A stretch of DNA of 63,272 nt, the filler included, from Folioceros fuciformis (lineage: Eukaryota), in NCBI GenBank assembly GCA_049999805.1. It is 10 parts of 10 records of this genome, joined end to end, with 100 filler letters (N's around TTAATTAATTAA, not from the genome) between each part and the next. Parts side by side here need not be neighbours in the genome. Positions count along the whole stretch, not along the records: positions 27,999 to 40,318 come from JBNGIO010005066.1; 9 more parts are not named here. The stretch is one strand, 5' to 3'. The notes below the pieces were generated by a model that was not told the origin of the DNA, searched no databases, and saw only the letters and a program-made list of their open reading frames with translations. Positions 17,066 to 47,919 of this stretch are shown here, piece by piece. The translations under genes were made by a program, and so were the position numbers. The number at the start of each line of letters is the position of its first letter. The stretch's first letter is position 1.

Positions 17066-17921
17066 GAGCTGATACAACGAACCAAGGAAGAAAGGCACAG
17101 GCGCAGCTCTGGAGCCGCCGCAGCTGCAGCTGCAGGAGCAAGGGCGGGTGCAGGAGAAGGAGCAGGCGTAGGAGCAGGTGCAGGTGCAGGTGCTTCAAAC
17201 ACAAGATCTCGCAGCCTGTAGAGCCTTTTCATCCGACAGGGTGCATGCTGCTCCCATCTCCGCAGCTCCGGTCCCCACAAATCCGGTACCAGAATGGGAA
17301 GCCGGGCCAGCTAGAGGCCGAGGCCTCTTCAGGATCCCAAATGTACAAATAAGATGCAGAAAGCGGGAAAGTCACATGGCAATATCACCGAAATCGTTGG
17401 CGAAGCCTCCTGTGGTTTCACCTTGCCAGGATCACACAACGTGTCTCGGGCTTCGGGATATTTGGAGGCCTAGTAAAATACCGCGGACTGAGGCCGGGCA
17501 GATGCTGTAAGGGCGTCTCCGGTATCGGACATCGCGCGGCCAGATTCTAAACTCACTGGCTGCTTATCCCAAGTCTGATCTGGCACGTCTGATCTTCAAG
17601 TTGAGGAGCATCATCCCACGCTCTCTTCAAGTTGCAGAGCAGGCACCGTGCGACGTAACGGTGTTGCCAGGCAGACTTCACGCGTGTTGGGTCTGGTTAG
17701 AACGTGACAGCCGGAGGGTGTGCCCTGGGGAATGTTGTGCACGGGCTTTGGTCAGACCCCCCCCCCCTGTCTGCCGGGATGCCTTTTCCTCCTTGGCTGC
17801 TGGAACATAACACCTCCAGGCNNNNNNNNNNNNNNNNNNNNNNNNNNNNNNNNNNNNNNNNNNNNTTAATTAATTAANNNNNNNNNNNNNNNNNNNNNNN
17901 NNNNNNNNNNNNNNNNNNNNN

Positions 17922-18675: not shown

Positions 18676-21600
18676 ATACTGCTTTGTTCCCGGGACGAGA
18701 ACGAGGACGAAGTAGAAGTAGAGGACGAGGAGTCTTTGGACGTGGCAGGGGCTAGTCATCCAATTATGGAAACAACACCTCTCTTCAAGGTGGGAAGAAG
18801 CCCGGTAATTGCAATTACTGCAATAAGCCAGGGCATTGGATTAAAGATTGCAGGAAACGAAAAGCGGATGAGGCAGCAAAGGGAAAGCAACCTGAAGGAC
18901 ATACTGCGAGAGCCTTGATTCTGGGGTTACTTGTAGCTTGCCTCAATTCAGTTGCTTGTGATACACATCGATGGTTTCTTGACAGTGGAGCGTCGAATCA
19001 CATGTGCTCATCTCGAAAGCAGTTTGTTACATATGAACGTGTTCCAACCTGCCACAAATCAGTAGTCTCGCTAGGAGATAATTCAAAAGTCCCCATTAAG
19101 GGTGTTGGAAAAGTCCAAATCCCCTTGAAGTATGGAGGGACTTTGAGGCTAGAGAATACCTTACACGTACCTTTGCTTGCTAAAAACTTGGTGAGCACAA
19201 TGGCACTTGGTAAGACTGGCCTCTACAGAATCACCTTCGAGGGTACGTCGCGTGTGATCTCTACATTGGACTCTCCCACTAGGGTCATATCTAGGAGGGT
19301 TCTCCCTTGTATGATCTATATCTACTGGATTTCGTTTCCCTGACTTCATCCAAGCCTGCAGCACACGCAGCCGGAGTGAAGTCAACCGCAAGTAAGGCCT
19401 TTCATTGGCATTGCCGGCTTGGTCACCCCAACATTAAGGCTATGCGAAGGCTACTCTAAGAAAAAATGGTAACAGGATTTATGGAATCCGAATTATTTGA
19501 CTTGGATTTGTGCGTGGTTTGTGTACATGGGAAACAATCTAAGTCCCATTTTGGTAGTGGTAAGCCACGCAAGCCCATAGATATTCTTGATCTTATCCAT
19601 ACAGACATCTATGGTCCATGTCTGTGGCCTCATGGGGAGGAGCTCGTTACTTTGTTGTGTTTGAAGATGATATGTCTCATTTCACTGTAATGGAGGTCCT
19701 GCAGTATAAGAGCGAGCTATTTGAGAGTTTTAAAGATACTTAGCATATGCTGAACGACAAACAGGCAAGCAATTGAAGTGCATCTGTTCAGACAATGTTA
19801 AAGAGTATCTTTCTACAGCCTTCCAACAGTTCTGTCTGGATAAGGGGATTACTTGACAGTTGACAATTCCCTATCACTCTGACATGAATGGAAGGGCTGA
19901 GAGGAGACATTGTACTATACAGGATACAGCTCGCTCCTTTCTGTTTCAAGGGAGGCTATCAATACGTTTTTTGGGCAGAAGCAGTTCAAGTTGCTACTTA
20001 TCTTCAAAACAGGATTGCCGTCTCTTCTCTTCATGGGGTAACACCGTTTGAGGAGTGGATAGGTCACAAGCCTGACTTATCTCATCTTTGCATTTTTGGT
20101 AGTGTAGCCTATGCCCACATTCTTGACAAGCTGCGACATAAGTTTGCCTACAAGTCTAGAAGGCATATCTTCATTGGGTACACTACTGGAATTCATGGGT
20201 ACAAGCTCTTCGACCCTACCTCACGCAAAGTCAGTCATGCTAGGACTGTTGTATTTGATGAGCACCCTATCTTGAAGCCTTCAGCAGTGGTTGATCCTGT
20301 AGACTATGAATATCCAGACTTAGTACCTGAGACAGACGAGAACTTATCCTCAGAGGTAGATTTAGATGTTGTTGAATTTCCTATCTCTGACCCTTCTTTT
20401 ACTGATGTCACTCTCTCCGCTCTGGACACACCTCTACCAACTCACACCTTTGAATCTCATACTAATGATTACAACTTGTCTAATTCAAACTCAGCCACAG
20501 GTTTCGAATAGCCTGCAGAAATAGTTCATGTTCCTCCTGCTCCCATCGACTTACCTGTTTCAAACCTTGAGGTTGATGACCCAATGCAGTTTGTATTACC
20601 TCTCCCTGATCCCCCTGAACATCCAGTTCCCCTCTTCTCGACCCCATAGGACTCGAGAGGAATGGTTAGAGAAACCATACAGACCGGAGGCTTGGGCTGG
20701 ACGCCAGGAGCCACAACTTGTTTCACGCTCGGTTGCCACTGGATCTAGAGAGACGATTAGAGATACAGCTCATGTTGCAGTCAACCCTGGTCATGAGCCT
20801 CAGTCCTATCATGAGGCCCTTACCAGTCCTGAATCCAAGCAATGGAAAGATGCTATCAAGTCTGAATGACTCTCTTATTTCCAATAAAACCTGGGAGCTT
20901 TGTAGAGCCCCTCAGGGGAGGAAAATTATGATGAGTAAGTGGGTCTTCAAGCTGAAGTATCAAGATGATGGTTCCATTGCCCATTATAAGGCTAGGCTGG
21001 TTGCTTGTGGCTTCTCACAAGTCCCTGGGCTGGACTATCATGATACATTCTCCCCTGTGGTCAAGGCTCAGTCTCTTCGAGTTTTGTTTGCCATGTCAGC
21101 CTTCTTCTCTCTCTTTATACATCAGATGGATGTCAAGACACCGTTTCTTCATGGCAAGCTGGAGGAGAAGATCTACATGCAACAGCCCGAAGGTCATGAG
21201 ATTGCTGGCAAGGAGGACTGGGTATGCAAGTTGCTCAAGACTATTTATGGTCTAAAGCAAAGTCCAAGAGCTTGGTATGAGTGCATAGATGAGTTCTTAT
21301 GAGATTTGGGCTTCATGAAGTCTTCAGCAGACTCTAATGTGTATCTGCTTCATGATGACATTGGCTATGTCATCTTGGCCTTGTACGTTGATGACTGTAT
21401 TCTCCTAGGTACTGACCTGCCAAACATTGAATGTGTCAAGTCCTTACTCTCAGGAAGGTTTGACATGGTGGACGTTGGTGAGTTGTCCTACTATTTGGGG
21501 ACACAGCTCCTACGAGATCCTCAAGAAGGCAATTTAGCTATACACCAAGAAAAATATATATTTGATATGCTGCATAAGTACAAGCTCCTAGATGCTAAAC

Positions 21601-24099
21601 CTTCCTTAACCCCTATGGAGGCCGGCAGTATCTATTGAAAGAGCAGTCACCTCAAACTGCTTTAGAGAAAGACCAAATGATGAGCGTACCGTATTCTCAG
21701 GCTGTTGGCTCCTTGATCTTTTGCTCTAACCATACAAGACCTGATATCTCCCTTCTAGTGAGTATGGCCTCTCAATTCTTGAAGGATCCTGGACAGATAC
21801 ATTGGTCAGCAGCAAAACGTATTTTGAGATACCTGAAAGGTACCAGTAAACATGGGATATACTACTCAAAACTAAAGTCATCCAAGGACTCTCTTACACT
21901 GACTGGTTATTGTGATGCTGGTTGGGCATCAGACCCAGACACAAGAAAGTCGATGTCAGCTTATGTCTTCTTATTAGCTGGTGGCATAATTACCTGGTCA
22001 TCTAAGAAACAATCCACAGTATCTCTGTCCTCTATAGAGGCAGAATACTCTGCTCTCACTAAAGCCCTTCCTAAGGTAAAGCACAACCTATTTAAGGAGA
22101 TGCTAGGAGTCTTAGACTCCAGCAGTATTGAAATGTCTATTTGAGGAGTGACTGACTGTTGTGTGTTACCAGTAGGGTAATTGTGCTCACAGTTCTTAGG
22201 GAGTCTCAGATCCTGAGCTTGTGCCGTCAAAGAACAGGGATCTCCTTTCTTCCCCCCTTGCTTTTAGTATCCCGAGGTAATTGGAGTCGAAATCATGTTC
22301 TGGTTCCTCTTCAGTGTCCTCGTCCTCAGTTGCAGAGGGTATCACTACTTCCTCATTTGGTATGTCCCTGGAAACTGCAAGTAACACACACGCACAATTA
22401 GTATTTCAAAGTAAGCCCTTCAGTCCTTCTCTAAACCACAACAAGAGTGGGAGGCCTTAGAGTTCTGAAGTTGCTTACCATTAAAGGATATAAAGCTCCC
22501 ACTAGAACCTCCCCACCTGTACCACTCCTCCCTTTTCATGGCTATTCCTGTCTCAGTACAGATATACATCTCTGGAGTTAGAGGGTTGTTTACACCGTCA
22601 CCGTCAGAGATCAGCCTCACCGTCTTGTTAGGGGGGTCTCTTGGCAAGGAAAAAGTTCTCCCTCGATATCTCATCGGCAACACAATCTTTGTCTCTCTTC
22701 CCTGAGGTAGAACAGCGCTATTGAGGGGACCACAAGATGAAATGAAATTAGGCAGGACAGGAGTCTCAGGTTTAGGAATTTGATCTGCAGAGTGAGCAGT
22801 TGGGTTGTGACGCATTCTTGACTACTCTGGTTCCCTCTTGAGCTCAGACTCTCGCTGCTCCAGCTTTGTTTACCTGGTCCTCCTAGTATCTGTTCATTCG
22901 GCGGCTCTCTTGTCTGCACATGTGAAGCCACTTGGGTGTTTGCCCGTGCCGAGGATAGTGTGGTGGACGCTCGGGGCAGATGCACATAGCTTGGTTTTCT
23001 TCTAGAGTTGGATATCTTGGTGCAGGAACTGGCGGAGGGTGCTCGCAGAACTCGTTAGAGGCAGTGGGAGCAGCACCCATGTCTTCAACCTAACTCCCCT
23101 CCAACACCTGGTGTCTCTCATCTAGGAGCTGGATCTACTGGTTGAAGAGAGTCGCTAGTCTCTTAGTCTAAGATATGAATCGGGGCGCTTATGGTCGCTC
23201 CTACTGCACCTCTATTCGCCATAGCTGATTCTTCTGGCTACAGGGTTCTGAGGTTGGAGATGCAAGCCTCAAGGAGCGTCTCTTCTTGGTACTTGAAGGC
23301 TCTATCAGCGCAACTGCACGAGTGAAGGAGCTTTGATAAACCCTATGTAGACTCAGGGTTTTGGGTTCTGGCTAGTTGTTAATTCGATAAACTTATAAAT
23401 GCCTACACCTCACTAAGCTGGTTAGCAATGAGTGGGAGTGTTAAAGGTATTATTTAGACCTAAGTATACATTGCTACCACTTAGGGTTAGTGATGGTTAC
23501 ATACCGTTTCAGGTTCTTAGACTATATACTTTATTTGCTTTCATGTTTTTCCTTAATGCAAGCCTACATGCTTTGTGGTCAGATGCGACTAAGGTTGTGT
23601 GCCAGTTGATCACAAATATCAACAAGTACTTGCAAGGAGTGTGACTTCCTCAAACTCCACTCACTCGTTACTACTCCTTCCCTTGCACAACTAGCGATTC
23701 CCTTGGCAAAGCTATTGAGTATCGTCTGGATGACACTTAGCTTGATGATGTTCAGGCTCAACCCCCTATCTTGGCAAACCCTAAGGATATAGTCAACCCT
23801 AAAGCTGTTTTAGATCCAATTCAACTCGTCCCTCCTGTTGTCCCTATCCCCCAAGCTACTGATGATCACCTCAACCTCAGAAAGCAAGCTCTCTAGTAAG
23901 GTTATGTATGCATTAGTATATCTAGTTGCATATCTAGTAGTACAAAGATACATATCAAGTTGATGTCTATACTTATTAAGGTATTGCCATTCATGAAGTT
24001 TATATATATAAGCATGAGCTACCTATTCTAATGTATGGTCCTAAAGGTATTCAATGATCTGGATTACAGTTGATCCTTGACTTTCTATTGTTTCTAACA
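18676..24099 (+). mobile_element. Degenerate Ty1/copia: gag end, PR, INT, RT, deleted RNase H, 1.3-kb 3' region, PPT and LTR (23439-24099)
   Basis: CNYCNKPGHWIKDC, WFLDSGASNHM, LIHTDIYGP, HQMDVKT, IYGLKQSPR, LYVDDC, ITWSSKKQ; GAGTGGGAG before TGTTAAAGG; many stops and frameshifts. Confidence 0.9.
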
Positions 24100-24854: not shown

Positions 24855-27800
24855 TGTTGGAATGTATCTCATCAATGAAGTAAAGGTTAAGAATAATAGT
24901 TATTTATCCAGCATTACTTAATTACATAATAATTAGGGCAGATAGTAAACGGGTAGATTACAATCGACACAACTAAAGGGTTTTGACTCAAAACACAACA
25001 GTCATGCACTTTCGCGGCCACGGGACACCACAATGGTTGGTCTCATGACTATTTAAGGAGCCACACGGCTCTTCCTTAATCTATCCTCCTATTCTCTAAT
25101 CTAGCTTGCCTGCTCTCTCGATCCTACAAGCTTTATGGTATCAAAGCTATGGAGGGTGCGTCGCCACCACGCATCTGTGCGACCTGCAAGAGCCTGAACT
25201 ATATAAAGAACCTGTCTATTGTAGATTTCAGGGTGGCAACTTTAGCACTCAGAGTATCTCTTACCAGGTTTGGCGCGATGGCCGACGCATTCCTTGCAAA
25301 CGCCGTGAGCCACTATTACGAGTGACTCTGCGCTATGCCAAGAGCACAAGGTAGAGGCAAGAACCTGCCGAGAGATCCTTTCTTTGGCGGTCGTGGCGCG
25401 TTGAAGGATATCCACCTGCAGAATCTGCATTGCTTCTTTGACACGCATTGCAATCTCTATCCTCCGCACACGCACAAAGTCAAGAAGAGTCAGTATAGGC
25501 GTCACACAACGTAAGTCTGTTAGCGACACCAGAAATCTGACTCTCCTGTCTCACCTAGAAGCCGGATTAGGCAAAGGTTTCACGAATCACACGATTTTTC
25601 TGAACAAAGAAGACATCACTTTGCACATCCTAGGACTGAAGCATCACCCGCACTGTTCGATAGGTCGCTGATAGAGGTGCTCCATTTGATTAGGTCACAG
25701 ACAGCTCAAGTCCACAATCTACTTGCGACTCACGCTGCACAGGCGTGGCAGCGATCCGTAAACCTGTCCAATGAGATTAACAACATTAATACTCACATTA
25801 GAACACTGACAGGACAGATTAAGAATCTTACAGTGTTATCCTTGAAAAATTCTGCACTTGAGTCTTCTTCACTTGCACCGGTTCATATCACAAGCGCACC
25901 GGTTCACATCTCGCAGCAAGAAGAAGAACGACCAATCATGAAGATGATCAAGGTTATTCAGAAATATTATCCAAGCCGCGTGGAGCAGCTGGCAGCCCTT
26001 GAAGCTAAGGCTGCACTACCTTTGTGAACCCCTGTACATGTCATACAACGCCCAAGGACGTGGAAGTAAGGTTCCGAAAGGTACTAGAAAAGTCAGAGGC
26101 ACAGGCAGGGGTGTCATACTTGTATCTAACACATTACCTGAAGATCCACTCTCACTTTACTCCCAGTCCTCATCACAAGGTAGTTCAGATACTGTAGATC
26201 CAACACTAGCTGCCATTCAAAGAGCACGTCTTGCGAAAGCCTTAGCAGATACACGTAGAGACCAAGCAGCATTGGTCGCACAAACACTTGCGTCACAAGT
26301 AATCAATACAATGGCCAGTCAAGTACCTATTGTCACTACCTTGAAAGTAGACTTTAAGGAGAAGGACCGCTTCTCTGGCACTCAGTTCGACATCTGGTCT
26401 CTTAAAGTACAAACTATTCTCAAGGAAAATGGGCTGTGGCGGGGGTAGTCAATGGTGCTCTACCCAAACCTCTTGCTGCCACTTCTACTCCTGCTGCAAT
26501 TGAGGCTTGGGAGAAGCTCGATCTTCGAGCTCTTGCTGTTATCCAGTCCGCACTGGATGGATCTATGATGTCACATACACAAGATGTGGCCACCACCAAG
26601 GAAGCATGGGACTCTCTCACGCATACCTATCAAGTTAACAATGGCTCTTCAATGGTTGGCGCCACAAGAGCATTCTACAACTGCAAGATGCGTGAACATG
26701 AATCAGTCGAGCAACATGTGGTGAAGTTTAGACAACTGAGGTCTAAGCTTACCTCAAGCGGAACGAAGACCACGGAGATGCAAGCGGTAGTTGCTCTTCT
26801 TCTCTCTCTTCCTCCCAGCTATCGGACTTTTGTAAGCAACCAGAGTTCTGCACTGCGTGTTGCAGCCCAGAATACACCAGCAGGACAGGCTCCTGCTGTC
26901 ACGTTATCTGATGTGATTGGAGCTCTTCTCAAGGAGGAGTCCACCAAAACTGTCAATCAAGGCGGCACCTCCTCCCGAGGAGAGTCATCCACAAGGGCGC
27001 TATACGCAAACAAGGGGCCCAGGAGACAACCACCAAGGCAGTCCTGGACACCAAACAACAACAACGCTGCTTACAAGAAACGTTCACCTCAAGCTCCAGC
27101 TAAAAAGAAGGGGCCTTGCAACTGGTGTCTCATTCCTAGACACTAGGAAGCCGACTGCAGAAAGAAGAAGGCCGGCGAAGCCATAAGATCGGCACCACCT
27201 GAATCTAATGTGGTACAGCGTAAGGCAAACACTCTGCTAGTTGTATGCATGGTCTCCACCGCATCCAATAAGCATGTATGGTTTATAGATTCTGGTGCGT
27301 CTTCTCACATCTGTCACTGCAAAAAGTCTTTCATAGAGTACAAGCCATTGCCACCTGGACAATTCGTATTGCTTGGAGATGACAGTGGTTTGCAAATAGA
27401 GGGGATAGAGTTAGTCCTTGTCACTCTATTTGACAAAACTACCTTGGTCTTAGAGGATGTTCTTCACGTACCTTTAATGGTCAAGAACCTAGTGTCAGTC
27501 CGCAAGTTCACTACCCAGCATTTGTTGAATGTGTCCTTTATAGGGGTACAATGTACAGTTACTGATCCACAGTATAAAAATAAGTTAGTAGCAACTGGGG
27601 CACCATTCCACGACCTGTATCAATTAATGTCACCTCTAAGCTAGGTCTACCTCCTACACGTGCACAAGTCAACATGAGTCAGGACACCAAGCAGAAAGAC
27701 AAGGATGCAGCTATGTTGTGGCATTGCCGTCTAGGCCATGCTAATTTCGAGAAGATCAAACAAATGGTGGCCAGCACAACTCTGTACAGAGAAAAATTCA

Positions 27801-27898
27801 TGCTTCAGTTTGTGGACAAGCAATTCTGTGAGGCATGTGTGTTCGGGAAGCATCAGCGACTTCCCTATACGGATGACAATCCTACACGAGCCACCAAG
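24855..27898 (+). mobile_element. Ty1/copia 5' part: LTR, PBS (25136-25147), long leader, gag, PR, INT start
   Basis: TGGTATCAAAGC; DRFSGTQFDIWSLKV, LLLSLPPSY, degenerate CNWC knuckle, WFIDSGASSH, LWHCRLGH; ends at gap. Confidence 0.92.
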
Positions 27899-27998
27899 NN
27901 NNNNNNNNNNNNNNNNNNNNNNNNNNNNNNNNNNNNNNNNNNTTAATTAATTAANNNNNNNNNNNNNNNNNNNNNNNNNNNNNNNNNNNNNNNNNNNN

Positions 27999-30900
27999 GG
28001 GGACACACTTTGCTGGGAGGGGGCCCATTGGACTAGCAGCCACTATCCCTGGGCAATCCGAGGGATCTGACCCACATATACATGCGAGCAGGGAACAAAT
28101 AGGAGGGAAACGAAACGATAGAGTGCAACGGGATGCTGGAACTGAAGTAGATGGAATTAGCCAAAAGAAACCAAAGGCATGAAGGGTGAGGGGGGGCCCT
28201 GGATCTTTAGAGGCCATAAGGACAGTACGTGTAACAACGGATGAGGAGCGCTTAGAGGAAGCTGAACAAGAAGAGGATCTACCTACTTGCCTACGAGATT
28301 GCGTGTATGAGAAGAAGGTAGTCCCATAAACTACGTGGGTGAAGTTGGAGAACCTCAGGATCGTAGCGTACCTCACACCGGATGCGCAAATAAGAAAAGT
28401 GGATGAAGCTTGGACAAACAATCTCACAAGGGTGATAGCGAAAGAGCGCATCGAAGAGGGAGTGCTACCTCTATTATGCATGATAGACCCGACTGAGAGT
28501 GCGACGTTGAAGGAACTGGATCTGGTGAAATCTCAGGCGCATCAGTATGTTATGGGTGTTCTCAGGGGGAATCACATATTTGCGGCTATGAAGCACTTAG
28601 TGGATACCTCACCAAGGAAAAAAATGGTTTCAATATGTTGAAGCCCATGTGTACTATGGACCTACACTGAAGGAGATGCGAGTGCTTGCGATGGACCACA
28701 ATATTATGTCAGACAAAAGGAGGAAAATGTCGTTCATCGAGAAGGTTTGGTATCTCAGAGACGAGCTTATTATAGCCAAAAGAGATGGTGTGCATATGAC
28801 CATGGCATGGAAGTTCAGCTTGTACAAGGTCTTGGGACTAATCGAAGATGACCAGGGTCAGGAAGATGATGTTTACAAGGTGGATAATCGGACACACATA
28901 TTGTGCATAGCCAAGCAGGAAGGGAAGGTCTAAGAAAACATAGACAAGATATTCAGCAAATGGGAAGCTTGTGAATTGCCGAAACAACGGAAACATACAG
29001 CAATAGGCATGAACAAGAAAGGAAAAGGCAAGAGCAAAGCATCTAATGATGTGAAAAGGGTTGATGCTGGCTATGTGAAGTCAAAGGATATGCTCGCAAA
29101 GCCATGGAAGTCGTTCCAAGGGATACCACCAGGGGAGTGTGGCTAGCAAATCCTCATATCGACAACAGAGAAAGTTCTTGTTGGTTTGCTGGACCTGAAA
29201 TGTAGGGTTATTAAAGCCCAATGTGCTTAGACTAATGTGCTTAGTCTAATATTAGTGTCTAGTTAAGTATCATTTCTTTTAGATTAGCTTAAGCTAATTT
29301 GTAGGAAGCTTCTTGCACAGCTTCCTGTGCTCTTCTTGTGAAGCTTCCTTGGGAGCTCTTCTAGAGGGGTATAAATACCCCTTTGAGCTCCCTTGCAATA
29401 TTGAGACATAGAGCGTGAGACCTCTCTTTCTCCTCTCCTTCTTGCTTCCTCCTCTCCTCCTTCACCATGTGGCTCCCCTAGCGATCCTTCATGAAAGGCA
29501 TGGACGATGACATAAGCCTAAGGAAGAAGTTCCATATTATCAAGGTGGCGATGGCGAAGCAACTTGGTTGTTCTTCATTTGATGAGGTGCGAAACAAGTA
29601 TCCGCAACACTCAACAAATGCCATGCTCGCGAAGTTTCAAACAGTGTTCACATGGAAGGTAAGACATCCTTTATATTTCATGGAAAACTATCCGTTTGCC
29701 TTATTGTCTTGTTCATCTGCCAAGGAGGGCGCCGGCCAGCTGGCGCCCTTGAGTGCAAAGCGTGATTGAGAGTGGTCCTCGTGGGGACATGTCACTCAAG
29801 TCTAACAAATTTTTTATGTTGAATATGTTTCCAGCAATTAAAGGATGTGGAGAACCTTACGAAGCTCCCTCAAGAGTTTCAAAACTACATTTTTGAAGTC
29901 AACAATTGGAAGGTCTTAGATAACAAGCAAAGAACCATCGCCGAACAAAGGACTTGCATGACGGCTTATTCAGTTTCAACGTTCCTTCGACAGATATGCA
30001 AGTGTAGTATATGGTTGAGGCATGGATTGTACAAGACATGAGGGGCTTTATGCGTAGACGCAATTATGGGTTGTTGCTTATGGATGTTCCTCGTGGGTTT
30101 GACATTGGTCCCATAGACGATCGATTGGATGGAAGCATTCTAGAAAATGTATTCGCCAACTTTGCGGAGAAGACAACTAACGAAGATTTCCAGTGGTGGT
30201 CATACATGGTGTAGAAGATGCACACACGGTTAGGGAGGACATGAAAAAGTGGTGCACCCGAGGTGAGCTCATTTCATTTGTTTGGGATAAAATGAATCTG
30301 TCCAAGGACCGCGGAGGCTTTGAAGCTGTGGAGTACATTACTATTGGATGGCCTTTGAAGGATGGGAGCAGCAAACAGTGCACGTCAATGATGCCATGGC
30401 ATAAGGGTGCTATCTTCAACAATAGAAGATCTATTATTGCACATGATACAATTGTGAAGAAACATGTGTACCTTTCCCATGACAAATGGGTTGTGTGCCC
30501 CATATCAGAGACCAATGGGGTTAATGGACAAGCTAATTTGCAGCTTCAACAAAGAGGGTGAGTGGGTCATGAATGCATGTTCTGGAAGCGGGACAACACT
30601 GTTGGCATCATTGCTAGCTAGAAGAAATTGCGTGGCCATTGAAGGGGACAAATGATGTGCAGCATACACTGCCCAGCAAGTGCATGGTTATGAAGTGCTC
30701 CCTGATGCAGTGGAGGAGCTAATGTTCGACCCGCTTCAAAGAGGACCATCACAATACTGGGCAAAGGAGGTATGCATCAGCAAGAAGGACTACTCTTGAG
30801 CACATGTTGTCTCTTTGACATCGAAGAGGAGGAGCTGCAAGAAGAGCCCGACAGTGGTGCCAGGACAGCAAACTTTGGACAGGATGTGGGAAGGGCCAAC

Positions 30901-31120
30901 AGTAGACAACGAGGAAGATGGAGATGCGCAAAGGGAGGACAAGGCACTGGAGGAAGTGGACAACTTTGATCTTGAAGATGAAGTGCGATCGTAGAATGTA
31001 ACCACAGTGTTTGACTCGAAGGCAACAGAAGATCATCCTGTGGACTAGAGTAGCCGTAGAGTGTATGCTTTTGTGGGTAGATGTTGAATTCTGTGCCCAG
31101 ACACTGTACACTGACAGACA
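27999..31120 (+). pseudogene. ParB-like domain fused to beta-class N6A/N4C-type DNA methyltransferase, copy A; intron 29659-29834; interrupted by solo LTR
   Basis: ParB-like QIRKVD...VL(R)GNHIFAAMKHL...DHN...MSFIEK; MTase motifs in beta order: YGLLLMDVPRG (IV), FVWDK, EYITIG, PYQRPMGLMDKLI (X), GEWVMNACSGSGTTLLA (I), RNCVAIEGD (II); stops and frameshifts. Confidence 0.8.
29201..29491 (+). mobile_element. Copia solo LTR with 5-bp target-site duplication TGAAA
   Basis: TG...CA ends; TGAAA at 29196-29200 and 29492-29496; homologous to LTR 9594-10041. Confidence 0.95.
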
Positions 31121-31929
31121 ATATCGAAGGTGATGAGTAAAAAGTTTTATACCCACCCTTCATTTTCATAGTAACTTGAGTTGGAGGGAGAGGGCGAGGG
31201 CGCCATCCAGCCGGCGCCTTCGGCTTGTAACTCATCTAACCTTCACCGTGTAATCCATGTTTCAAACTTGTCGCAAGCGAGGAAGAGGGTGTGTGATAAA
31301 CAAGCACATTTGATTTTGTGTGTTTAAAGAAGGGTGTCTTTATTGTCAAGAAGGTCTACCCTCCTTCTAAGAGGGTCACAACATTCACCCCCTTGCAAGT
31401 TTGTGTTGTTGAATGTCCATTCATACTCTTTGTTCTTAGAAACCCTTGTTTTCTGCCCGTATGTGATTAATTTCAAACTGTGGGTTTCAAGGATATTAAA
31501 CCTATAGGCTTTCGTGACGCACACAAGTATGCACCCACCACGAGACCTAGTGTGCCCAAGTGTGCGCCATGCACCTAAGACCATCATAACAGGCTATAGA
31601 ATCAAGGCAATTCCAAGACACGCTAGTCAGGCACTCCCTTCTTCCTCTTCAACATTGAGTGTTGAAGAGATGTTATAACGATGTTCAAGATGTTGAAGCA
31701 ACCTTAAACGCCTCCAAAAACGGCTGATCAACTGGCTAAGGATTTGAATCCTAAGGTTTCATTATCGTTTTACTCTCCCCACATTTAGGAGCCTTTAAAT
31801 CAATCTATTGGTATCTAGAAGTGCGATTTGGAAGCTTAGTGGCATTTTCAAGTCCTTGCTAAGAGCTAGTTATCGCACAAAAAATTGCATTCGGAGCAAA
31901 CCATTTCACACAAGTTCTTGCTCTGAGCG

Positions 31930-32130
31930 GGCCCGTGCTCACGAATGTGCACCATGACCTAGTTGCTATGAATTTATGCATGTCATAACTCAGTTGGCGC
32001 ACACAAGTGTGTGCCATGACCTCGCAAGCACACACTTGTGCACGCCATGACCACGCTAGTACGCACAAGTGTGCACCATGACCAAGCTGGCACGCACAAG
32101 TGCACTCCATAAAATAGCTAGCACACATGT
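31930..32130. repeat. Degenerate ~30-bp tandem repeats with GCACACAAGTGTGC-like palindromic core
   Basis: Cores at about 31999, 32028, 32061, 32091, mostly followed by CCATGACC; outliers at 31519-31570 and 32643. Confidence 0.75.
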
Positions 32131-32903
32131 TCAGCGCATAATGGTAAAAAAAAACATTAAAAATAGCAAAAAAAATCCAAAAAAAACCCAATTTTTAGTC
32201 ACTGGTGCGCACTTGGGCGCGTCATGGCTTCAAAGTTTTATAGTTTTCCTTTTTTTGGATTTTTTGTATAAAAAATCCGTTTTTATCGTTTTTAACCCCT
32301 TTTTGCACAGTTTTGTTTTGCAGTGAGACTTGACTCGTACCCATCTTTCTTTTGATGATCTAAGCTTTAAGTAAAGTAGTGAGTGAGGACTTAAAGCGTG
32401 CTTTGCATCCTTGGATGTTTAAATGCCTTTTACAACAAATGTGTTTAGAAACATTCTCCAACGCGACTTTGCCAATAGACAAACCTGACGAACCCAGCAG
32501 ACAAACCTAAAGAGCCAATTCTATTGGCAACCCAACAAGAGACAACCCTACATTATTATCCCTAGGCCTGAAAGGCCAGAATCTACACGATTCGAAAAAT
32601 AAGACCTTTCGCTAGATAGGCTACATGCCTGAAAGTAGGCAGGCGCACACTTGTGCACGCCTTGATACTGTAGTTTACTAGAAAAACAACTGATTTGGAA
32701 ACAAGTTTCTTGTGTGCCTTATATCAATGTCTGCTTTCAACATAAAATAGAAGTGTGTAAATTCGCATAGTAATAGCCGCTGGCCTTCTCAAACCCTCGA
32801 CTTGCAATAGATGGCATTTTTGGAGGGTGGTGCGATGTCATATGACTAAAGCAAAAGGCAAAAGAAGGGTTTGAGGACAGACCCGATTTATTTTAGGCAT
32901 TGT

Positions 32904-33545
32904 TCTTTCCCATGACAAATGAGTAGTTTGCCCATATCAAAGACCATTGGGGTTAATGGACACACTGATTTATAACTTCAACAGAGAGCGTGAGTGGGTT
33001 GTTGATGTGTGTACCGGCAGCGGGACTACACTACTAGTGTCATTGCTTGTTGGGAGAAACTATGTAGCCATCGAAGGAGACAAGCGATGCGCAACATACA
33101 TTCCTTAGTGAGTCCATGGGTATGAAGTGCTCCCAGATGTTGAGGAGGAGCTAACATTTGACCTGCTCCGGAGAGGGCCATCCCAGTTTTGGGCGAAGGA
33201 GGTTTGTATCAAGGAGAATGATTGCTCTTGAGCACAAGTAGTTTCTTTGACCTCAAAGAGGAGGAGCTGCAAGATGAGTGAGGCATTGGAGGCGAGACAA
33301 CAACCTTGGAGAGGGTATGGAAGGGATTGCAAAGGACAATGAGGACCTTGGAGACTCACGAATGGAGGACAAAGGAGCTAGAGGAATTGGACAACCTTGA
33401 TGTTGAAGATGAAGTGCGATTGCAGAACATCGTTGTTGTGTTTGACTTCGAGGCTACACAAGATCCTCCTGTGGACTAGTGTAGATGTAGAGTGTATGCT
33501 TCTTTGGTTAGATGTTATGTTTTGTGAGCGTGAAATGTACACCCA
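32904..33545 (+). pseudogene. Methyltransferase family copy B (3' fragment)
   Basis: CPYQRPLGLMDTLI...EWVVDVCTGSGTTLL...RNYVAIEGDK; colinear at DNA level with 30472-31100. Confidence 0.85.
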
Positions 33546-33889
33546 AAGACATTCTCCAATGGACTTAATAAACATTCATAAAGAACGTTGTTTGAAATAA
33601 TTCGGGTCTGTCCGTTGACCCTTCTTTCCTTTTTTTTCTGCACATGGTTTCCCCTCTTCCCACCCTCCTTGATCTCTCAGTTTTGTTGTTTCCGAGTTGG
33701 GCTCGCTAGACACATAGTACATCATGGGTTTAAAAGTAGACATTTTTTGAAGCTAAGATTACAGACATGTCAAGCTGATTGTATTACCGTCAAACATGAG
33801 CATGTATTACAATGATCATAGCCATCCATGGCACGCACATGGGCGTGCCAAAGCTCTTTCACATTTGCATTGCTAACATAGGCCACAAT

Positions 33890-34920
33890 CTACCCTTCAT
33901 GGGGTGGAGAGTCTTGTTGCTCCGTCATGGGGACAATTATGTCATCTCTCATTGGCGCATAGCTCACTAACAAACAACGGTCTGGGTGGTCTTCTTCCAC
34001 AAACACGAATGATGGGTTGGACGTGAAAGTCTCTAGCTGCTCAGGGTCCCAGGTCTTGTCATCAGAGTGTCGTGGCGCTGGCTTTCCCAAATCCTCTACA
34101 AGTGCATTATCATATTTCCTTCCCTTCCTTTCATTCTCTTCTTTGCATGCCCTTGCGTTTGACTGAGTTCTTGGAGGTCCATTGGTGAAGTCTTTCCTTC
34201 AACCATTTGCATTATGTGCGCTCTCGGTTTCACCCACCTTCCACTGGAAAGCTCTCGAGCAAAAAAAAGTGAATGCACTCATGTGTGAGGCTTCGTCGTC
34301 AATTCTTCCTCATCGAATGTAAATACTTCATGCCCCATGATTCTCTGCTCGATGAAGATGGTATGTCGTTGGTCTTGGTCAATGACAATACCATTCCACC
34401 TTTCCATAAATACAGCAAGCACACCACTTCCGCTCCCAGCGCATCCATCTATAATCCACTCTCCTCGATCGCTAAATAGCTCACATAAGAGAACTATCAA
34501 CCCCAAGGGCTTCTAATATGGATTTACAACTCGGCCGTCATTCGACAAGTTGACCAATTTTTTGATGATAGCGTTGTGCTTGATGATCCAAGGCATCGCT
34601 CCAATCTCCTTTGCTGCACTGTTGCTCAGTGCACTGCTCTTTTTGATATCTTCATTCAACGGATGAACCCCAAATTCTACTGCCATGTACGTGCAAATTT
34701 CGTACAGACCCTCATATGCTACGACATAGTCTTTTTCCTAGACCATAGTTTGAACGCCTCCCTTTGCGCACCACTTCCGTAAGTCGTCTCTCACATCCTG
34801 CATCTGATTTGGTCCATGCATGCACACAACTTTGAATTTTGGCACTCAGTGAATTTGAAAAATCCTTATGTGGAACATAGAATTTCACGCCAATGTTCCA
34901 ATTTTGGTACAATATGTACA
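33890..34920 (-). pseudogene. Methyltransferase family copy C, 3' part (divergent)
   Basis: FKVVCMHG...VRDDLRKWC...VVNPY*KPLGL...GEWIIDGCAGSGSG...IVIDQD aligns by eye with copy A. Confidence 0.8.
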
Positions 34921-34922
34921 AA

Positions 34923-37401
34923 TGAGGCTAGTATAGGGAAGGTTGGTTCCTTCCTATTTGGTTTTGTNNNNNNNNNNNNNNNNNNNNNNNNNNNNNNNNN
35001 NNNNNNNNNNNNNNNNNNNNNNNNNNNNNNNNNNNNNNNNNNNNNNNNNNNNNNNNNNNNNNNNNNNAGGGAAGGTTGGTTCCTTCCTATTTGGTTTTGT
35101 TTCTATTTTCTATTGTTATTTTTTAGTGGCTATATATGTGAGTGGGGTTTTCACGCATAGTAAGGAGAAGCATTTGTCCGAGGGACATGAGTCTGATGGG
35201 TCTGTCCGGGAGACAGAATTGACGAGGATCCGTCTGAGGGATAGAAGTGGGATGGATCTGTTAGGGGGGCTGAGGTGGTCTGGTACCAAACCATCAGGTT
35301 TGGCAAGAGGTCCGAGCAGGGGACCTGCTAAACCAAGCTACATGCAAGCACTCCAAGTCACTAGATTGCATCTAGGCACTCCAAGTAACCAAGTTGCATG
35401 CAAGCACTCTAAGTTCCCATGAGACATGCAACCACTCTAAGTCCTCAGGTGCTTGGGAGCTTAGGGAAAGCAGCCATTTGTGAGCAAACGGGTGGGCAGC
35501 AAAAGATCATGAGAGGAAGTGGCAATGCTGCCAGAGTGAAAAGGCAATGAGGTTGCCACAGCGTGGCAACCTCGTCCAGCGTGGCAACCCCTTGTGGCTC
35601 TCGTCCTCCTGTCCTTTTCTTTTTACCCTTCTTAGGGTGCAGGTGATTGAGCAGTTGCAAGAATAGGAGCAAAGGGTTGAGAGCTCGCAGGAGGAAGAGG
35701 AGACTGCTGTAGGGGCATTTGATCCTAAGCCAGAAGATTTGGGGGAGAGAGAAGAGGAAGCTCGGACCGGCAAATGTGGAATGCACATCCGACAGATAGG
35801 AGATCTTGGGGACACTTGACCCCAGGACAGAAGCTAACGTGGATCTATCACTTGTGTTGCCTACAAGACAGGAGGACTCTCCTTCTCCTATGCCTTTGGA
35901 GAGCAGCCCAGCAACTGCACCCTAATCATCAACAAGAGACTAGCTGATGAGGTGACAACACCAAAGGACAAGGAGGATAATTGCAGCAAGCAAAAGATCA
36001 TAAGGTTCCCTCCCAAGGACATAGCTGGCGGAGGAGTGTGAGGAGTGGGATTGGGCCCCACTGTTTAGACTTAGTTTATGTTGGCTCGTGGTGGATTGGG
36101 CCTAATTGGTAGGCTCATTAAGACTTCTGACACCAGGTCATTTTCTAGGCAAGCCTAGATTAGTGAGCCAAGAGGTTCATTAATTTAGTTGACTTTTCAT
36201 AGTATTGACCTAAAGAGAGAGAGAGAGCGTGAAGAAGGAGGGGACCTCCTATAAGGCTAGGAGAGTCCCATGAGCTCTCGCTTCATGAGCTCTAGATGTT
36301 TCTTGTTTCAACTGGCTGATGTGGTTGAGACCTCATCTCCCTTTCCAATCGGATGTTGCTAAGTTTTAGCTGTTGGATGTGGATGAGGTTAGGGATTACT
36401 GGCTGATGGTGCAAGTGTCCATGGTTGTTGTTCTTATTGTTCCCGCATGTTGGTCTTGCTAGTGTGTTGTCGGCCAAGGAGACTTGGTGCCTGGTAGAAG
36501 GTAAGGGTAGGTTTAATCAATTTGTGGGGTAGCGTAGGAGAGTTCTAACCCATGGAGGGAAGAACAAGTAGAGGAGTAGGTGTGGAAGAATAGAGGAGTA
36601 GAGGTGAAGGTCCTTGTAGTGTTTAGAGTTACAAGGCACCGAAAGTGCTCATGGCTTGGCAAGGAGCATGAGGTTGTGTTTCCTCAAATCCGCCCTAATT
36701 GGTATGTGTTTCTGACGTGGTGCTGGCAGGATCTGAAGGAGGGGGGTTGCAACCTGGCTGTACCTTCCTTTTGCAGGTTCTGACTTGTGGTTTCCAGCAC
36801 ATAGAGTGAGAGGACTATAGGCAATAACAGCTACAGCAGTTGTGAGTGCGAAGATCTGTCCACGAGTCGGCAGTGGCAACCTAAACCGTTGGCAGGGTAG
36901 GAGTGATATTCCTAACCTGTCTGCAGTTGGCAGGTATGTCGGAAGTTGAGTAGTACCTCTGACCGGAGGTAGCAAGGTCAGAAGTGATTTGGATGGAAGT
37001 TGGTTGTGAGACGTGAGAAGGGTGAAGTAAAAGGTTGTGGGAAATGAGAAGGGTGAAATAAAAAGTTGTGAGACGTGAGAAGGGTGAAGTAAAAGGTTGT
37101 GAGACGTGAGAAGGGTGAAGTTGGAGGTTGTGTGGTCAGGTCAGGGGTGACAGACCTAATCTGTATGCAACTAGATGAGTCCTGATTAGGGGTTGCGAGG
37201 TCAAGAGTAGAGGGTCAGCAGTTGGGAGGACATGATTTGTTGGGTTGGATGTAAGAGTTGTGAAGTTGTGGAGTCCAGAGAAGTCATCTCATATACTACA
37301 GATTGGGAACACTAGCCACTCTTTGGTGGGATCGAAACCCATTCTATACTAACGATAGTGGGATAAGTGTGGCCACTACAGGACAGAGCTCATGGAGTCC
37401 C
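34923..37401. mobile_element. Unclassified repeat-like insertion separating the two parts of methyltransferase copy C
   Basis: Lies between two colinear halves of copy C; internal tandem repeats; no recognisable domain; plain N gaps near both ends. Confidence 0.45.
37002..37131. repeat. 4 x 31-bp tandem repeat GGTTGTGAGACGTGAGAAGGGTGAAGTAAAA
   Basis: Read directly. Confidence 0.9.
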
Positions 37402-37501
37402 NNNNNNNNNNNNNNNNNNNNNNNNNNNNNNNNNNNNNNNNNNNNNNNNNNNNNNNNNNNNNNNNNNNNNNNNNNNNNNNNNNNNNNNNNNNNNNNNNNN
37501 N

Positions 37502-37791
37502 TTGTCCCATGGTTCTGCGTAGTTTCCTCTTGGCATATCCAATATGAGCAACTTATACTCTCGATTACTCAAGTATGCATCCATTTCTCTGAGATCACCG
37601 CTTCTCACCTGATATTTCACTTTCTGTTTATTGCTAGGGACTTGGAAGGTTGAGAGTTTTGCATCATTGTCCTCATCCGCTTATTTTCGTTGCAAATCCT
37701 CTACTCACTTCCAATTCTAAGCGGCATTGATGTGCTCTTTAAAAGAATCCAGAATGACTTTCTCCTTGTATTCCTTTGCCTAGTAGAGTGT
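37502..37791 (-). pseudogene. Methyltransferase family copy C, motif IV exon fragment
   Basis: After a TGCAG acceptor: SFKEHINAA*NWK*VEDLQRK...GDLREMDAYLSNREYKLLILDMPRG, homologous to copy A exon 2. Confidence 0.75.
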
Positions 37792-38149: not shown

Positions 38150-40318
38150 CACAAAACGTTGTGGCTTCATCCACTGCGCTGATCAACATACCACATTAAT
38201 GTGCAGTGCCAATCTTGGCCANNNNNNNNNNNNNNNNNNNNNNNNNNNNNNNNNNNNNNNNNNNNNNNNNNNNNNNNNNNNNNNNNNNNNNNNNNNNNNN
38301 NNNNNNNNNNNNNNNNNNNNNAGCCTTGGTAAGCAAATCTGCAATGTTGTCACTTGTTGGAATATAACGAACTTCCAACTCGCCTGTATCAGCAGCTTGT
38401 CTTATAAAATGATGAGTAATTTCTATATGCTTCGACCTCGCATGGAAAATTGGGTTCTTCGAGAGTGCCATAGCAGATTGGTTTATCACACCATAATACT
38501 GTAGCACCTGATGGTAGTTGCTGTATGCCTCTCAAGAAAGAACGTATCCAAATTACTTCTCTTGCTGCTTGTAATAAAGCTCCATATTCGGCCTCTGTAG
38601 ATGATAAGCAAATAGTAGCCAACTTCTTGCTTGACCAAGAATCTTGCACCAGTTGCACGTGAAAGTATGTCTTTGAAGGTTGGGCTGCCGAGAGGTTGAA
38701 GATCCTCCTCGTGTTGAGCCCCCACCTCCTCTGCCACGATTGCCTCCACATCCTTTTGAACCAAACAAAACTCTGCTGCCTTGCTACATAGTAGGCTTTG
38801 ACTTGTGAAGGCTCCTCCGGCGTTCTTCAGCAATCAAAGCTCCAAATACCTGCTCCAATGTTACATCGGCACCAGGTCCAACTGCTTGAAGAGTAGCATT
38901 CTGAGAACTGATAAACTGAAAATAACTATCAGGCAGAGATGCTAAAAAGGAAACAGCTGCTTGAAACTCAGTGAAAGTTGTCCCACAATATGCAAGGGTC
39001 GCACGAGCTATGCGAAACTTATTGATATAAGACTCAACAGTCTCATTATCCTTCATACAAATATTGAAAAAATCCCGATGCGCAAAAACAAGGGAAATAG
39101 AACTCTTATCTCTATAGATGAGTTGGAAGTTGTTCCAAACTGCAGCTGAGGTGTCAGCGTCCATGGTATGCGGCATCATGTTCCTGTCAAGGGATGCCAA
39201 CAGGATTGACCGGGCTCTCCTGTCCTTCCTTTGCCATGCAAGAATATCAGCAGCATTTGCATTGTTGGGCTGTGCTGCTGGTTTTGGTTATGTTCCGTCC
39301 ACAACGGACATGAGCTCATGCTCCTCCAAAATCTGGGTCAGCCTCATGGCCCATATGTGGTAATCATTACCATTGAAGCGATCCTTGTCCTTGAACTCAA
39401 TCTTCAAGGAACCTGGGGTGATTGCCATAGCTTGCGCAAGGGTGTTGACAGGAGGCACTGGTTGTTGAAATGTGCTGGCTCCTAAATGTGCAGCTTGTGC
39501 AGTGGAAATTCCAACTCCACCAGCAGGATAGCCTGCCGTGCTTGCAAGGGTGCTTGCAAAACCAGTAGGGTTGCCTGCTGCAGGAGAGGGAACACCAGAT
39601 GGGTTGCCCCAAAAACTTCTCAAAAGCTCAAAAGGAGACGCCTCTTGCTGCTCATCGGTGCCAGTTGTGGAATCGACAACAGGGGAAGCGGGTTCCTCCT
39701 GCAAATCCAATCTGCCAAGTCCACATCTTCGCCTTCATTAAATTTGCCAGACGCTGATGATGGCGAACCTGGCTGCATGTCCAATTTTCAAACATTAAGA
39801 ACAGGGCACACGTGGGCGTCCCGGTGAAAACAGCCTAGCCAAATGCACATGCTTCTCCTCTTCAGTTGGAGTAGACAGAAAAAATAATTGTTGAATTCCA
39901 GTTAGAAGAATAGAGAGAAAATCTTGTAAATCATAGATCTGGTGAGATGCTTCCCTCAAATCAGCTTCAAGTTGTCGTTGTAGAAAGTTACGAGGAAATG
40001 AAGAAGGTGTATGCTGAGTAGGGCCTCGATTGGAAATACGTCTCACAAAAGGTTGTGGCTGGCTGCTTGCAAAATGTCCGGATTCTAGCTTCCGGCAAGA
40101 TGAACAAACAAAAAACCTTGCTGGTTTAGGTGACGGTTGAGGGCAAACACTTCTCCACTGTGTGTGAGAAGCTGCCTTGCACCTCGGCATCTTCACCAGT
40201 GTTGCAGCATCCTCATTGTTCTTGAGAGAATTTCAAGAGAAGACGAAATCACAAGTTGGCACCTCAGCGCTTCACTGTTCCTCTGATGAAGCCCGCTGCC
40301 CGTGCATCAGCTGCGCGC
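38150..40318 (-). mobile_element. Internally deleted Ty1/copia (gag followed almost directly by RNase H)
   Basis: Gag LKIEFKDKDRFNGNDYHIW, FLASLPDSY; then SWSSKKL...SSTEAEY and HARSKHIEITHHFIR; PR, INT and RT absent. Confidence 0.9.
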
Positions 40319-40418
40319 NNNNNNNNNNNNNNNNNNNNNNNNNNNNNNNNNNNNNNNNNNNNTTAATTAATTAANNNNNNNNNNNNNNNNNNNNNNNNNN
40401 NNNNNNNNNNNNNNNNNN

Positions 40419-43290: not shown

Positions 43291-43885
43291 GTCATCCCGT
43301 CCCAATCTGCAACATTGCATGCAGAAGGTGGGGCCCTGGTCAGTAACTGAGCACACAGGAAGATGCACATCCAGGAATGCACTTGCCCCAAACCAATTGC
43401 TCCTTGGGAAACTCCTGAAGCTGCGGTTTGCTGACCTCTAACTGCTTTTCTGCCATTCCATAGCGAACCCTTTGCTCGGTGTTGCAAAAGGTTGAAGACT
43501 TCTGATGCTGCCTGTCAGTGACGTATCCGCAGGGTCAATTCTTCGTATACAGCTCCTATTGCACGGAAAGAGAGGAAGAGGCAGATGTCCAGCTTGCACA
43601 GTTTTGCATAACCAAGGACCAGGGAAGGAAGTATTACCATATAGCTCCCGCAGACATCGCCTGCCTATACTTGCGTCCGGCAGGTTCCGGAGCTGTTTCG
43701 CTGCAGCTCATGGTTGCTCTGATGGCACCCCACGTCTGGGTGGCAGGGATCGTTCAAACAGCCTTCTTGGCTGCAAGTTTTAGGGNNNNNNNNNNNNNNN
43801 NNNNNNNNNNNNNNNNNNNNNNNNNNNNNTTAATTAATTAANNNNNNNNNNNNNNNNNNNNNNNNNNNNNNNNNNNNNNNNNNNN

Positions 43886-47446: not shown

Positions 47447-47919
47447 GTTGGTGCCTCGGCTTGTGCCCAAAGTCTTTCGCACCAGAAATTGCCTACAATC
47501 TACTCTTGCCTGACTGCCAGCAACCTATCGAGCAGACCTATGTCGAAATTCCTCCAGAGCAGAGTTAGGCCGCAATTCAATCCCGCAAGACCACTCAGCT
47601 TCCCTCTCGAACCTGAGACGCCGGCTTTCCTAAACCCCAGAGCCCTTAAAGCAGACGACGGGCAGAGTTATATATGTCTAGTCCAAATTATAAACCCAGA
47701 GCCCATTCAACTTCATAGAATTAGGCCCTTTTATCATCCCTGAATGATCTCGGTCTGTTTACGGCAAAAGTATCAAGCAGTAATGGCACAAGTAAAATAA
47801 GATGAAAGTTAAAAATAAAAGAGATGAAAAATTAAATCTAGAGCATAAGCAAGTATGCTTCTTGCTACCTTTAGAAACAAGATGTGTGTTCCACGCAATG
47901 AATAAGCCAATGCTAAAAT

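Follow-up and report, generated by a model that had tools for sequence, protein, structure and literature searches.

Does an arginine at the place of the base-stacking tyrosine of a methyltransferase mark a gene in decay, or a trait that a lineage of proteins has adopted and kept? The question is raised by a locus of the eukaryote Folioceros fuciformis (assembly GCA_049999805.1), which has been analysed as a stretch of 63,272 nucleotides, filler included, referred to here as the window. At approximately 28.3–37.8 kb (record JBNGIO010005066.1), between copia fragments, the window contains four copies, A to D, of one gene family with an amino-methyltransferase domain, and two of them encode the pentapeptide D(V/M)PRG. 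The four copies are old, diverged paralogues, each of which is now a pseudogene or a fragment, and no active protein can be encoded by them. The reading favoured here, with a probability of about 0.7, is that D(V/M)PRG is the catalytic motif IV of broken copies of a eukaryotic family with a phage- or bacterial-type beta-class domain, that one clade of this family replaced the tyrosine of the motif with arginine and kept it, and that the pocket of the arginine-type proteins is still used.

Motif IV in copies A and C

Among the four copies, the motif IV site is retained only in A and C:

30083–30097, + strand: motif IV of copy A, D-V-P-R-G; arginine codon CGT at 30092–30094; aligned with DLPRG, DIPYG and DLPYG of relatives and, via the family profile, with DPPY of CcrM and M.MboIIA.
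37525–37539, − strand: motif IV of copy C, D-M-P-R-G; arginine codon AGA at 37530–37528; located by tblastn of P0005, P0003 and P0011 onto 37749–37510.

The codons ttg ttg ctt atg gat gtt cct cgt ggg of copy A are translated as LLLMDVPRG. The codons gat atg cca aga gga of copy C lie within KLLILDMPRGNYAEPWD, where the motif is preceded by KLLIL (KLLILDMPRG), and a gap of N at 37402–37501 ends the sequence 12 codons past DMPRG. A preliminary description of the locus, made from the DNA alone, had reported LLLMDVPRG in copy A and LLILDMPRG at 37539–37525 in copy C, and both readings and their coordinates were found to be correct when the DNA was read again. The two motifs occupy equivalent positions in a homologous stretch, in which approximately 18 of 44 aligned residues are identical by alignment count (36% over 44 columns in the data of the second tree described below) and which also shares an L-x-x-F-x-VPS and a V-x-Y-x-V pattern upstream of the motif. 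Because database relatives match both places in tblastn, with E values of 4e-5 to 6e-5 for copy C and 1e-5 to 7e-11 for copy A, the similarity of the copies represents homology and not a chance pentapeptide.

Alignment and modelling identify D(V/M)PRG as the true motif IV, that is, the catalytic loop after strand beta-4, as the preliminary description had proposed. A profile built from 13 members of the family aligns 'ytLliaDiPyGlnak' to 'vdLIFADPPYNLQLG' of CcrM and to 'VQLAVIDPPYNLSKA' of M.MboIIA, with whole-sequence E values of 2.3e-18 and 7.3e-16. The same profile matches CcrM, M1.HpyAVI, M.MboIIA, M.BceJIV and M.RsrI at E 2e-18 to 5e-14. In the AlphaFold model of the arginine-type relative P0004 (mean predicted local distance difference test, pLDDT, 76.9; predicted template modelling score, pTM, 0.79), the strand of residues 44–50 ends at D50 and is followed by L51-P52-R53. 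The best Foldseek matches of this model are CcrM, M1.HpyAVI, M.BceJIV, M.MboIIA and M.RsrI (E 2e-12 to 1e-10, probability 1.00). The match to CcrM, with an E value of 2e-12 and template modelling (TM) scores of 0.59/0.52, indicates that the fold of solved PF01555 members is present in the relative, the model being that of the relative and not of a window copy. The Pfam gathering cut-off for PF01555, 26.7 bits, is passed by seven of seven homologs (P0003 50.1, P0004 47.3, P0005 30.0, P0007 33.2, P0010 30.5, P0011 65.7 and P0025 39.9 bits), and the broken window copies remain under it (15.8 bits, E 0.014, for a piece of copy A; 13.4 bits for copy D).

The sequence around the motif has the layout of a permuted enzyme. 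A GD box typical of beta-class enzymes lies upstream and aligns with that of bacterial DLPYG proteins. On the 3' side, the motif is followed by a W-x-K-x-N box, an (N/S/C)-P-Y-Q-(K/R)-P box and then motif I, GSG(T/S). Motif IV is therefore N-terminal to motif I in copy A (DVPRG at 30083–30097, SGSGTT at 30581–30598), an order which is common to all aligned relatives. The canonical form of motif IV, (D/N/S)-P-P-(Y/F/W), is replaced by D-V-P-R in copy A, D-M-P-R in copy C and D-L-P-R in close relatives, with the aspartate and the second proline kept. The permuted order, the GD box, the Q-K-P box and the GSG(T/S) motif I are shared with the beta-class PF01555 enzymes CcrM (6pbd), M.MboIIA (1g60), M.RsrI (1eg2), M1.HpyAVI (5hfj) and M.PvuII (1boo), to which the family is linked by the fold match (E 2e-12) and the profile match (E 2e-18). 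By contrast, the family has D-hydrophobic-P-(Y/H/R)-G where these enzymes have (D/S/N)PP(Y/F), and N-P-Y-Q-K-P where they have H-P-T-Q-K-P. Furthermore, the family consists of eukaryotic genes with a large extra N-terminal domain, and its members are putative methyltransferases known here from sequence.

Ancestry of the motif and the arginine clade

The motif reads DLPYG in 118 of the 118 phage or bacterial relatives listed, which were recruited through one DLPYG protein and thus represent a single subfamily. Most eukaryotic relatives have D(I/V/A/F)PYG, and a clade that contains a Ginkgo gene model, P0011, has DIPHG. Motif IV paired with a QKP box is present in 36 of 62 metagenome loci; the residue in question is tyrosine in 23 of these (mostly DIPYG), histidine in 13 (DIPHG) and arginine in none. 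The ancestral motif of the family is, as judged from these alignments, D-hydrophobic-P-Y-G and not DPPY, and the absence of the first proline is ancestral as well. Since this loss is ancestral, the change from tyrosine to arginine is the sole unusual step, with the change from tyrosine to histidine as its parallel in another clade. The contrast with the canonical xPPY that was drawn in the preliminary description overstates the oddity of the motif, because the replacement of proline by L, I, V or M at the second position is already found in 118 of the 118 DLPYG relatives.

The phage and bacterial DLPYG subfamily (e.g., P0038 and P0052–P0169; PHROG phrog_67 and phrog_498), in which the first proline is likewise missing, is the nearest non-eukaryotic group in the searches. 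Unlike the eukaryotic family, its members keep the tyrosine and an HPTQKP box, are approximately 250–280 residues long, stand alone and have no introns. A long branch splits the subfamily from the eukaryote-type group in both trees, with a Shimodaira–Hasegawa-like approximate likelihood-ratio test (SH-aLRT) support of 96–100.

An exhaustive HMMER search of 1.84 billion representatives, for which copy D was the query, yielded 45 hits with E values of at most 1e-3. The best three of them, P0003, P0004 and P0005, are 29–37% identical to the query and all have DLPRG, as does a further clade member, P0170, so that four of the four nearest-clade database relatives that cover the site read DLPRG. Among the eukaryote-type representatives covering the site, a count which leaves out hits that are fragments without the motif region and bacterial-type proteins, four have arginine, nine tyrosine and one, the Ginkgo protein P0011, histidine. 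In a first tree of 30 rows (28 proteins and copies A and D, with short fragments and most bacterial hits excluded), the DLPRG proteins group with the window copies in a single clade of eight rows with an SH-aLRT of 94, in which A and D are sisters (96). A second tree of 60 rows was calculated from the motif-bearing exon with the motif region removed. It contains an arginine clade of six rows, all with arginine (SH-aLRT 90), and a histidine clade of 14 rows formed by the Ginkgo protein and 13 metagenome loci (98). The row L049_R of the second tree was considered as an additional arginine member; however, it is a spurious regular-expression hit on a 384-kb contig, with a branch length of 3.91, odd composition and no QKP pairing, and has not been counted.

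The arginine codons of the window copies differ. Because copy A has CGT and copy C has AGA, the arginine has been kept through a change of codon family. The arginine is thus an inherited trait of one clade and not the product of local decay. The preliminary description had called it a family trait, which is upheld in the narrower form of a clade trait by the four of four nearest relatives, the clade in the trees and the different codons. DPPY and SPPY in intact homologs, which had been named there as speaking against a shared trait, are carried by none of the unbroken close homologs. In the histidine clade, the tyrosine of motif IV has been lost a second time, independently. The members of this DIPHG clade (SH-aLRT 98) are L024, L026, L033, L035, L037, L038, L042, L043, L045, L047, L050, L053, L054 and P0011.

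In the long forms of the family, an N-terminal region of several hundred residues is joined to the methyltransferase domain. The gene family looks eukaryotic, with a large N-terminal domain of unassigned family fused to the PF01555 domain. The Ginkgo protein matches the metagenome locus L037 (2266–4545) in query-contiguous pieces that are 94 and 131 nucleotides apart, and it matches the locus L008 (2310–4548) in pieces, with GTAAG after the first piece. These gaps are intron-like, which suggests that family members are spliced eukaryotic genes. No transposon or viral domains were found on six related loci, one of which adjoins an ordinary dehydrogenase gene. A scan of viral contigs returned one locus only, by a match to motif I alone, which gives no support for a viral origin and is not evidence against it.

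Pfam has no family for the N-terminal domain, and nothing was found in eight N-terminal or upstream open reading frames (ORFs) from six metagenome loci. There are weak leads towards a ParB/Srx-like domain: P0011 matches DUF6551 at an E value of 0.019, below the cut-off, and an Atlas cluster with ParB_N ranked 12th with a score of 0.93. A profile search of the PDB gave no match to ParB, and the AlphaFold model of P0025, built from six alignment rows, has a pLDDT of 44.6 and is unusable for the fold of the N-terminal domain. The ParB-like domain is a first impression that has not been confirmed.

No description of the family, or of arginine at this motif position, was found in the literature searched, with most subscription journals and preprint supplements lying outside the search. 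The variant is part of an apparently undescribed eukaryotic branch of a known enzyme family. PF01555 is generally viewed as an enzyme family of prokaryotes and viruses in essence, with N4CMT of rotifers as the one well-studied eukaryotic case.

Possible roles of the arginine-type proteins

The unbroken arginine-type proteins share 32–49% overall identity and have kept a common set of functional elements: the aspartate and proline in motif IV, the YQKP box, the GSG of motif I and, behind strand beta-2, the acidic residue. Their end branches in the first tree, with lengths of 0.41–0.80, were judged similar to those of the tyrosine-type proteins, 0.26–0.49. Because the pocket residues are kept and the branch lengths are like those of the tyrosine-type relatives, the pocket still seems to be used.

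The C-terminal half of the family is an amino-methyltransferase domain of the phage- or bacterial-type beta class (PF01555). One clade, comprising the window copies and the four DLPRG relatives, has swapped the base-stacking tyrosine for arginine and retained the arginine, and the other clade, with the Ginkgo gene model, has swapped it for histidine. According to the proposed mechanism, an unbroken arginine-type protein would most likely bind S-adenosylmethionine (SAM) and accept a flipped base, and the planar guanidinium of the arginine may take over a stacking or hydrogen-bonding role. It is possible, at slightly less than even odds, that methyl transfer is kept with an altered target preference. 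Binding without transfer may be proposed more tentatively. An altered substrate or chemistry and a catalytically dead base-binding protein, both put forward in the preliminary description, are thus among the candidate roles. It is rather unlikely that, in an apparently plant-borne family split into tyrosine, histidine and arginine clades, the arginine-type proteins act as enzymes, or serve as dedicated readers, whose target or chemistry is unseen in known amino-methyltransferases.

Several points weigh against a pocket in continued use, or against the evidence from which it is deduced. The model of P0004 has a pLDDT below 50 for residues 54–61, directly after the motif, and the geometry of the side chains cannot be inspected. 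The supports of the trees are SH-aLRT values from quick searches, and the window rows are on long branches. The four relatives with DLPRG are known as gene predictions on contigs and could stem from a few, related species. Damage is also seen in some relatives from the clade, with a motif I deletion in P0051 and only fragments of P0006 and P0014. Selection no longer acts at the window locus, because all four copies are dead. The positive charge of the arginine beside the SAM sulfonium may disfavour catalysis, and the tyrosine has been given up twice, for arginine and for histidine, a pattern that would also fit a relaxed need for catalysis. N4CMT, a related enzyme of rotifers, lost its activity when both the serine and the tyrosine of the motif were changed to alanine (SPPY to APPA; PMC8885841). 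Loss of catalysis in the arginine-type proteins is quite possible because this mutant is inactive.

The strongest rival explanation is that the arginine-type proteins are catalytically dead pseudo-enzymes, in which the fold, SAM binding or a base pocket has been kept to serve binding or regulation. Studied enzymes need the aromatic residue that stacks the base, with the APPA mutant as the example, the independent loss of the tyrosine in two clades hints that canonical catalysis is dispensable, and the large extra N-terminal domain could supply another function. However, the YQKP box and motif I, together with the aspartate and proline in motif IV, vary little or not at all in the arginine clade at the identity given above. 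The arginine itself has been kept through the change of codon family, which indicates that the residue mattered, though not for what. Dead pseudo-enzymes are unlikely, if still to be reckoned with.

A dead paralogue is available for comparison: METTL3 and METTL14 are structural neighbours of the P0004 model, at Foldseek ranks 40–50. METTL14 belongs to the MT-A70 family, has an EPPL motif and is a paralogue with a degenerate motif IV that keeps the fold and acts through binding. Its catalytic aspartate has been lost too; by contrast, the arginine-type proteins keep the aspartate and proline of motif IV.

The arginine could also be functionless. In that case drift would have fixed it in the founder of a multi-copy lineage that is decaying and perhaps selfish or acquired horizontally, and it would simply persist in the descendants. 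It would fit such a history that all four window copies are pseudogenes, that truncations or internal deletions affect several database relatives (P0040, P0046 and P0051) and that copy B lies between inverted repeats like a captured fragment. However, L/M-D-x-P-R-G is kept in six sequences at 30–50% identity with variable flanks, the change from CGT to AGA takes two steps which both keep arginine, and the clade includes uninterrupted ORFs of 288–446 residues. The 186 codons of copy D include no more than two stops, although the copy is 33% identical to copy A, so that most of the divergence occurred under constraint. Drift is a distinctly improbable explanation. That the segment is not motif IV and that its D-x-P-x-G resemblance is coincidental is scarcely credible: the PF01555 matches in homologs start downstream of the motif, at profile positions 47–76 onward or later, so that Pfam alone gives no placement, but the alignment to CcrM and M.MboIIA spans the motif, the P0004 model places it as a strand followed by a loop, the GD box aligns upstream, and motif IV stands ahead of motif I in the expected order.

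A eukaryotic PF01555 family in which one clade exchanged the tyrosine for arginine and retained a pocket in use, the reading preferred here, resembles two other eukaryotic systems in part. N4CMT of bdelloid rotifers (PDB 8s9m, 8s9n and 8s9o; Foldseek ranks 34–39 for the P0004 model) is likewise a PF01555 enzyme in a eukaryotic genome that is fused to an extra domain, which is a C-terminal chromodomain in N4CMT and an N-terminal domain in the family. The PF01555 domain of N4CMT was acquired from bacteria. The enzyme has SPPY and a proven N4-methylcytosine (4mC) activity that the APPA mutant lacks, and its authors, who also list the known variants of the motif, describe it as being without eukaryotic homologs (PMC8885841). 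The DAM domains of DIRS and long terminal repeat (LTR) retrotransposons are prokaryote-derived, adenine-methyltransferase-like domains that have multiplied in eukaryotic genomes, as stated in a preprint (bioRxiv 10.64898/2026.05.21.726589). The same preprint reports that heterologous assays gave no activity, that the DAM pocket has Asn-Pro-Pro and an aromatic residue, that the domains are linked to reverse transcriptase or tyrosine recombinase, and that DAM-LTR elements are absent from Streptophyta (bioRxiv 10.64898/2026.05.21.726589). Identity of the family with these retrotransposon methyltransferases has been considered and rejected: its motif differs from the Asn-Pro-Pro pocket, and no reverse transcriptase or recombinase adjoins the genes here. 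The copia-type domains of the window are separate elements in other ORFs, and the six related loci have no transposable-element domain.

The broken copies and their surroundings

The preliminary description took the copies for genes; all four are pseudogenes or fragments, damaged by frameshifts, stops, an LTR insert or truncation. The features of the copies are as follows:

28339–31128, + strand: copy A, a full-length but broken long-form gene with an N-terminal domain, linker, PF01555-like methyltransferase domain and acidic tail; placed by homology, with similarity to copy B extending to 31128.
29201–29491, + strand: very high-copy insert of 291 bp in the coding region of copy A, bounded by TG..CA and by duplicates of the 5 bp TGAAA (29196–29200 and 29492–29496).
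30191–30192, + strand: frameshift in copy A; two bases are left of the codon before VVVIHG, which implies the loss of 1 bp.
30498–30501, + strand: run of four C in copy A; the frame is shifted between ...HDKWVVC and PYQRPMGL, and a three-C variant would read VVCPYQRP in frame.
30500–30598, + strand: PYQRP box (30500–30514) and SAM-binding motif I, SGSGTT (30581–30598), of copy A; motif I is aligned to that of CcrM and M.MboIIA via the family profile.
32905–33572, + strand: copy B, a 5'-truncated fragment with the PYQRP box, motif I and the tail, and three in-frame stops; its DNA is 74–76% identical to copy A at 30472–31141, and the 5' half is absent.
34288–34845, − strand: copy D, in which the methyltransferase domain extends from the strand behind motif IV as far as the tail, in a single frame with two TAG stops; placed by family protein matches and alignment.
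37510–37749, − strand: copy C, the N-terminal part of the methyltransferase region with three in-frame stops, ended by the N gap 37402–37501; placed by tblastn and translation.

The N-terminal domain of copy A (28465–29176) is homologous to P0011 and P0025, and its methyltransferase domain spans 29963–30760. The phase of the reading frame shifts near 28620, 29770–29830, 29950, 30191 and 30499, and the in-frame stops include 30005–30007 and 30653–30655. Contigs from the sequencing runs X1 (29566–30296) and X2 (29566–30265), which are possibly from the source sample, have no differences from the window around the frameshift at 30191. At 30499, one base is omitted in one contig of each run, with a depth of 7.18 of 18.2 in X1 and 16.1 of 27.2 in X2. 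The three-C variant could represent a heterozygous site or a close paralogue.

The word depth of the 291-bp insert is approximately 40,000, compared with approximately 15 alongside, and loose ends are present at 29200/29201 and 29491. The empty site, in which 29195 is joined to 29492, is found in contigs of the same sample. These observations suggest that the insert is a solo LTR of a very abundant family. Because contigs include variants without the insert and without one C at 30499, a less damaged, if perhaps still broken, allele or close paralogue of copy A may exist. A repeat related to the insert is located at 9594–10038. The coverage of run X4, presumed to be RNA, is limited to the insert and is uninformative on the expression of the gene. 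A further run of the same sample, X3, has almost solely C>T and G>A differences from the window at 28300–34900 and looks like a bisulfite-type library, which could give the methylation state of the window pseudogenes.

Copy B is exactly flanked by 48-nucleotide inverted repeats, 32861–32908 and 33580–33627, which are 79% complementary; together they look like a terminal-inverted-repeat element with a captured piece of a gene. Contig joints connect 32896 and 32929 to the high-copy insert. The TAG stops of copy D replace the invariant tryptophan of the family (34740–34738) and the glutamine of YQKP (34515–34513). The homology of copy D fades upstream of the strand after motif IV, near the N gap 34968–35067, and the motif IV region is unrecognisable. 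The peptide NLPYT upstream of copy D was considered as its motif IV, since the distance is about right; however, the hydrophobic strand is absent and the peptide lies within a sequence that occurs on either side of the N gap, and the resemblance was judged to be due to chance. Read as KTK*EGTNLP, this short sequence flanks the 100-N gap 34968–35067 on either side (window 34940–35110) and could represent a duplication of the gap flank or a tandem repeat.

The whole window is eukaryotic. Besides the gene copies, it contains several fragments of copia-type LTR retrotransposons, one gene each for GrpE and DEK_C, and assembly gaps. The copia-type fragments are located, for example, at 6954–9005, 18756–21635, 25948–27943 and 38787–39287. 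The ORFs with DEK_C and GrpE domains, at 46733–47524 and 52889–53548, respectively, both on the − strand, look like ordinary host genes. An arrangement of 44 N, 12 bases and 44 N occurs at nine places (6297–6396, 10042–10141, 17822–17921, 27899–27998, 40319–40418, 43786–43885, 56632–56731, 59727–59826 and 62164–62263). These places are unlike the three plain 100-N gaps and look like masking rather than assembly gaps.

The window locus is in practice a cluster of dead copies. It leads to a eukaryotic PF01555 family with a large N-terminal domain, which is intron-bearing as judged from the intron-like gaps and comprises the Ginkgo gene model P0011 and dozens of environmental loci. Within the family, the residue thought to stack the flipped base has been substituted naturally, from tyrosine to histidine and from tyrosine to arginine, with the rest of the pocket conserved. 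If the arginine-type proteins only bind, they would be a natural example of an enzyme turned into a reader. If they act, they would provide a test of the variability of motif IV and might reveal a new modification; enzymes or readers with a new target or chemistry would represent a new nucleic-acid modification activity in eukaryotes.

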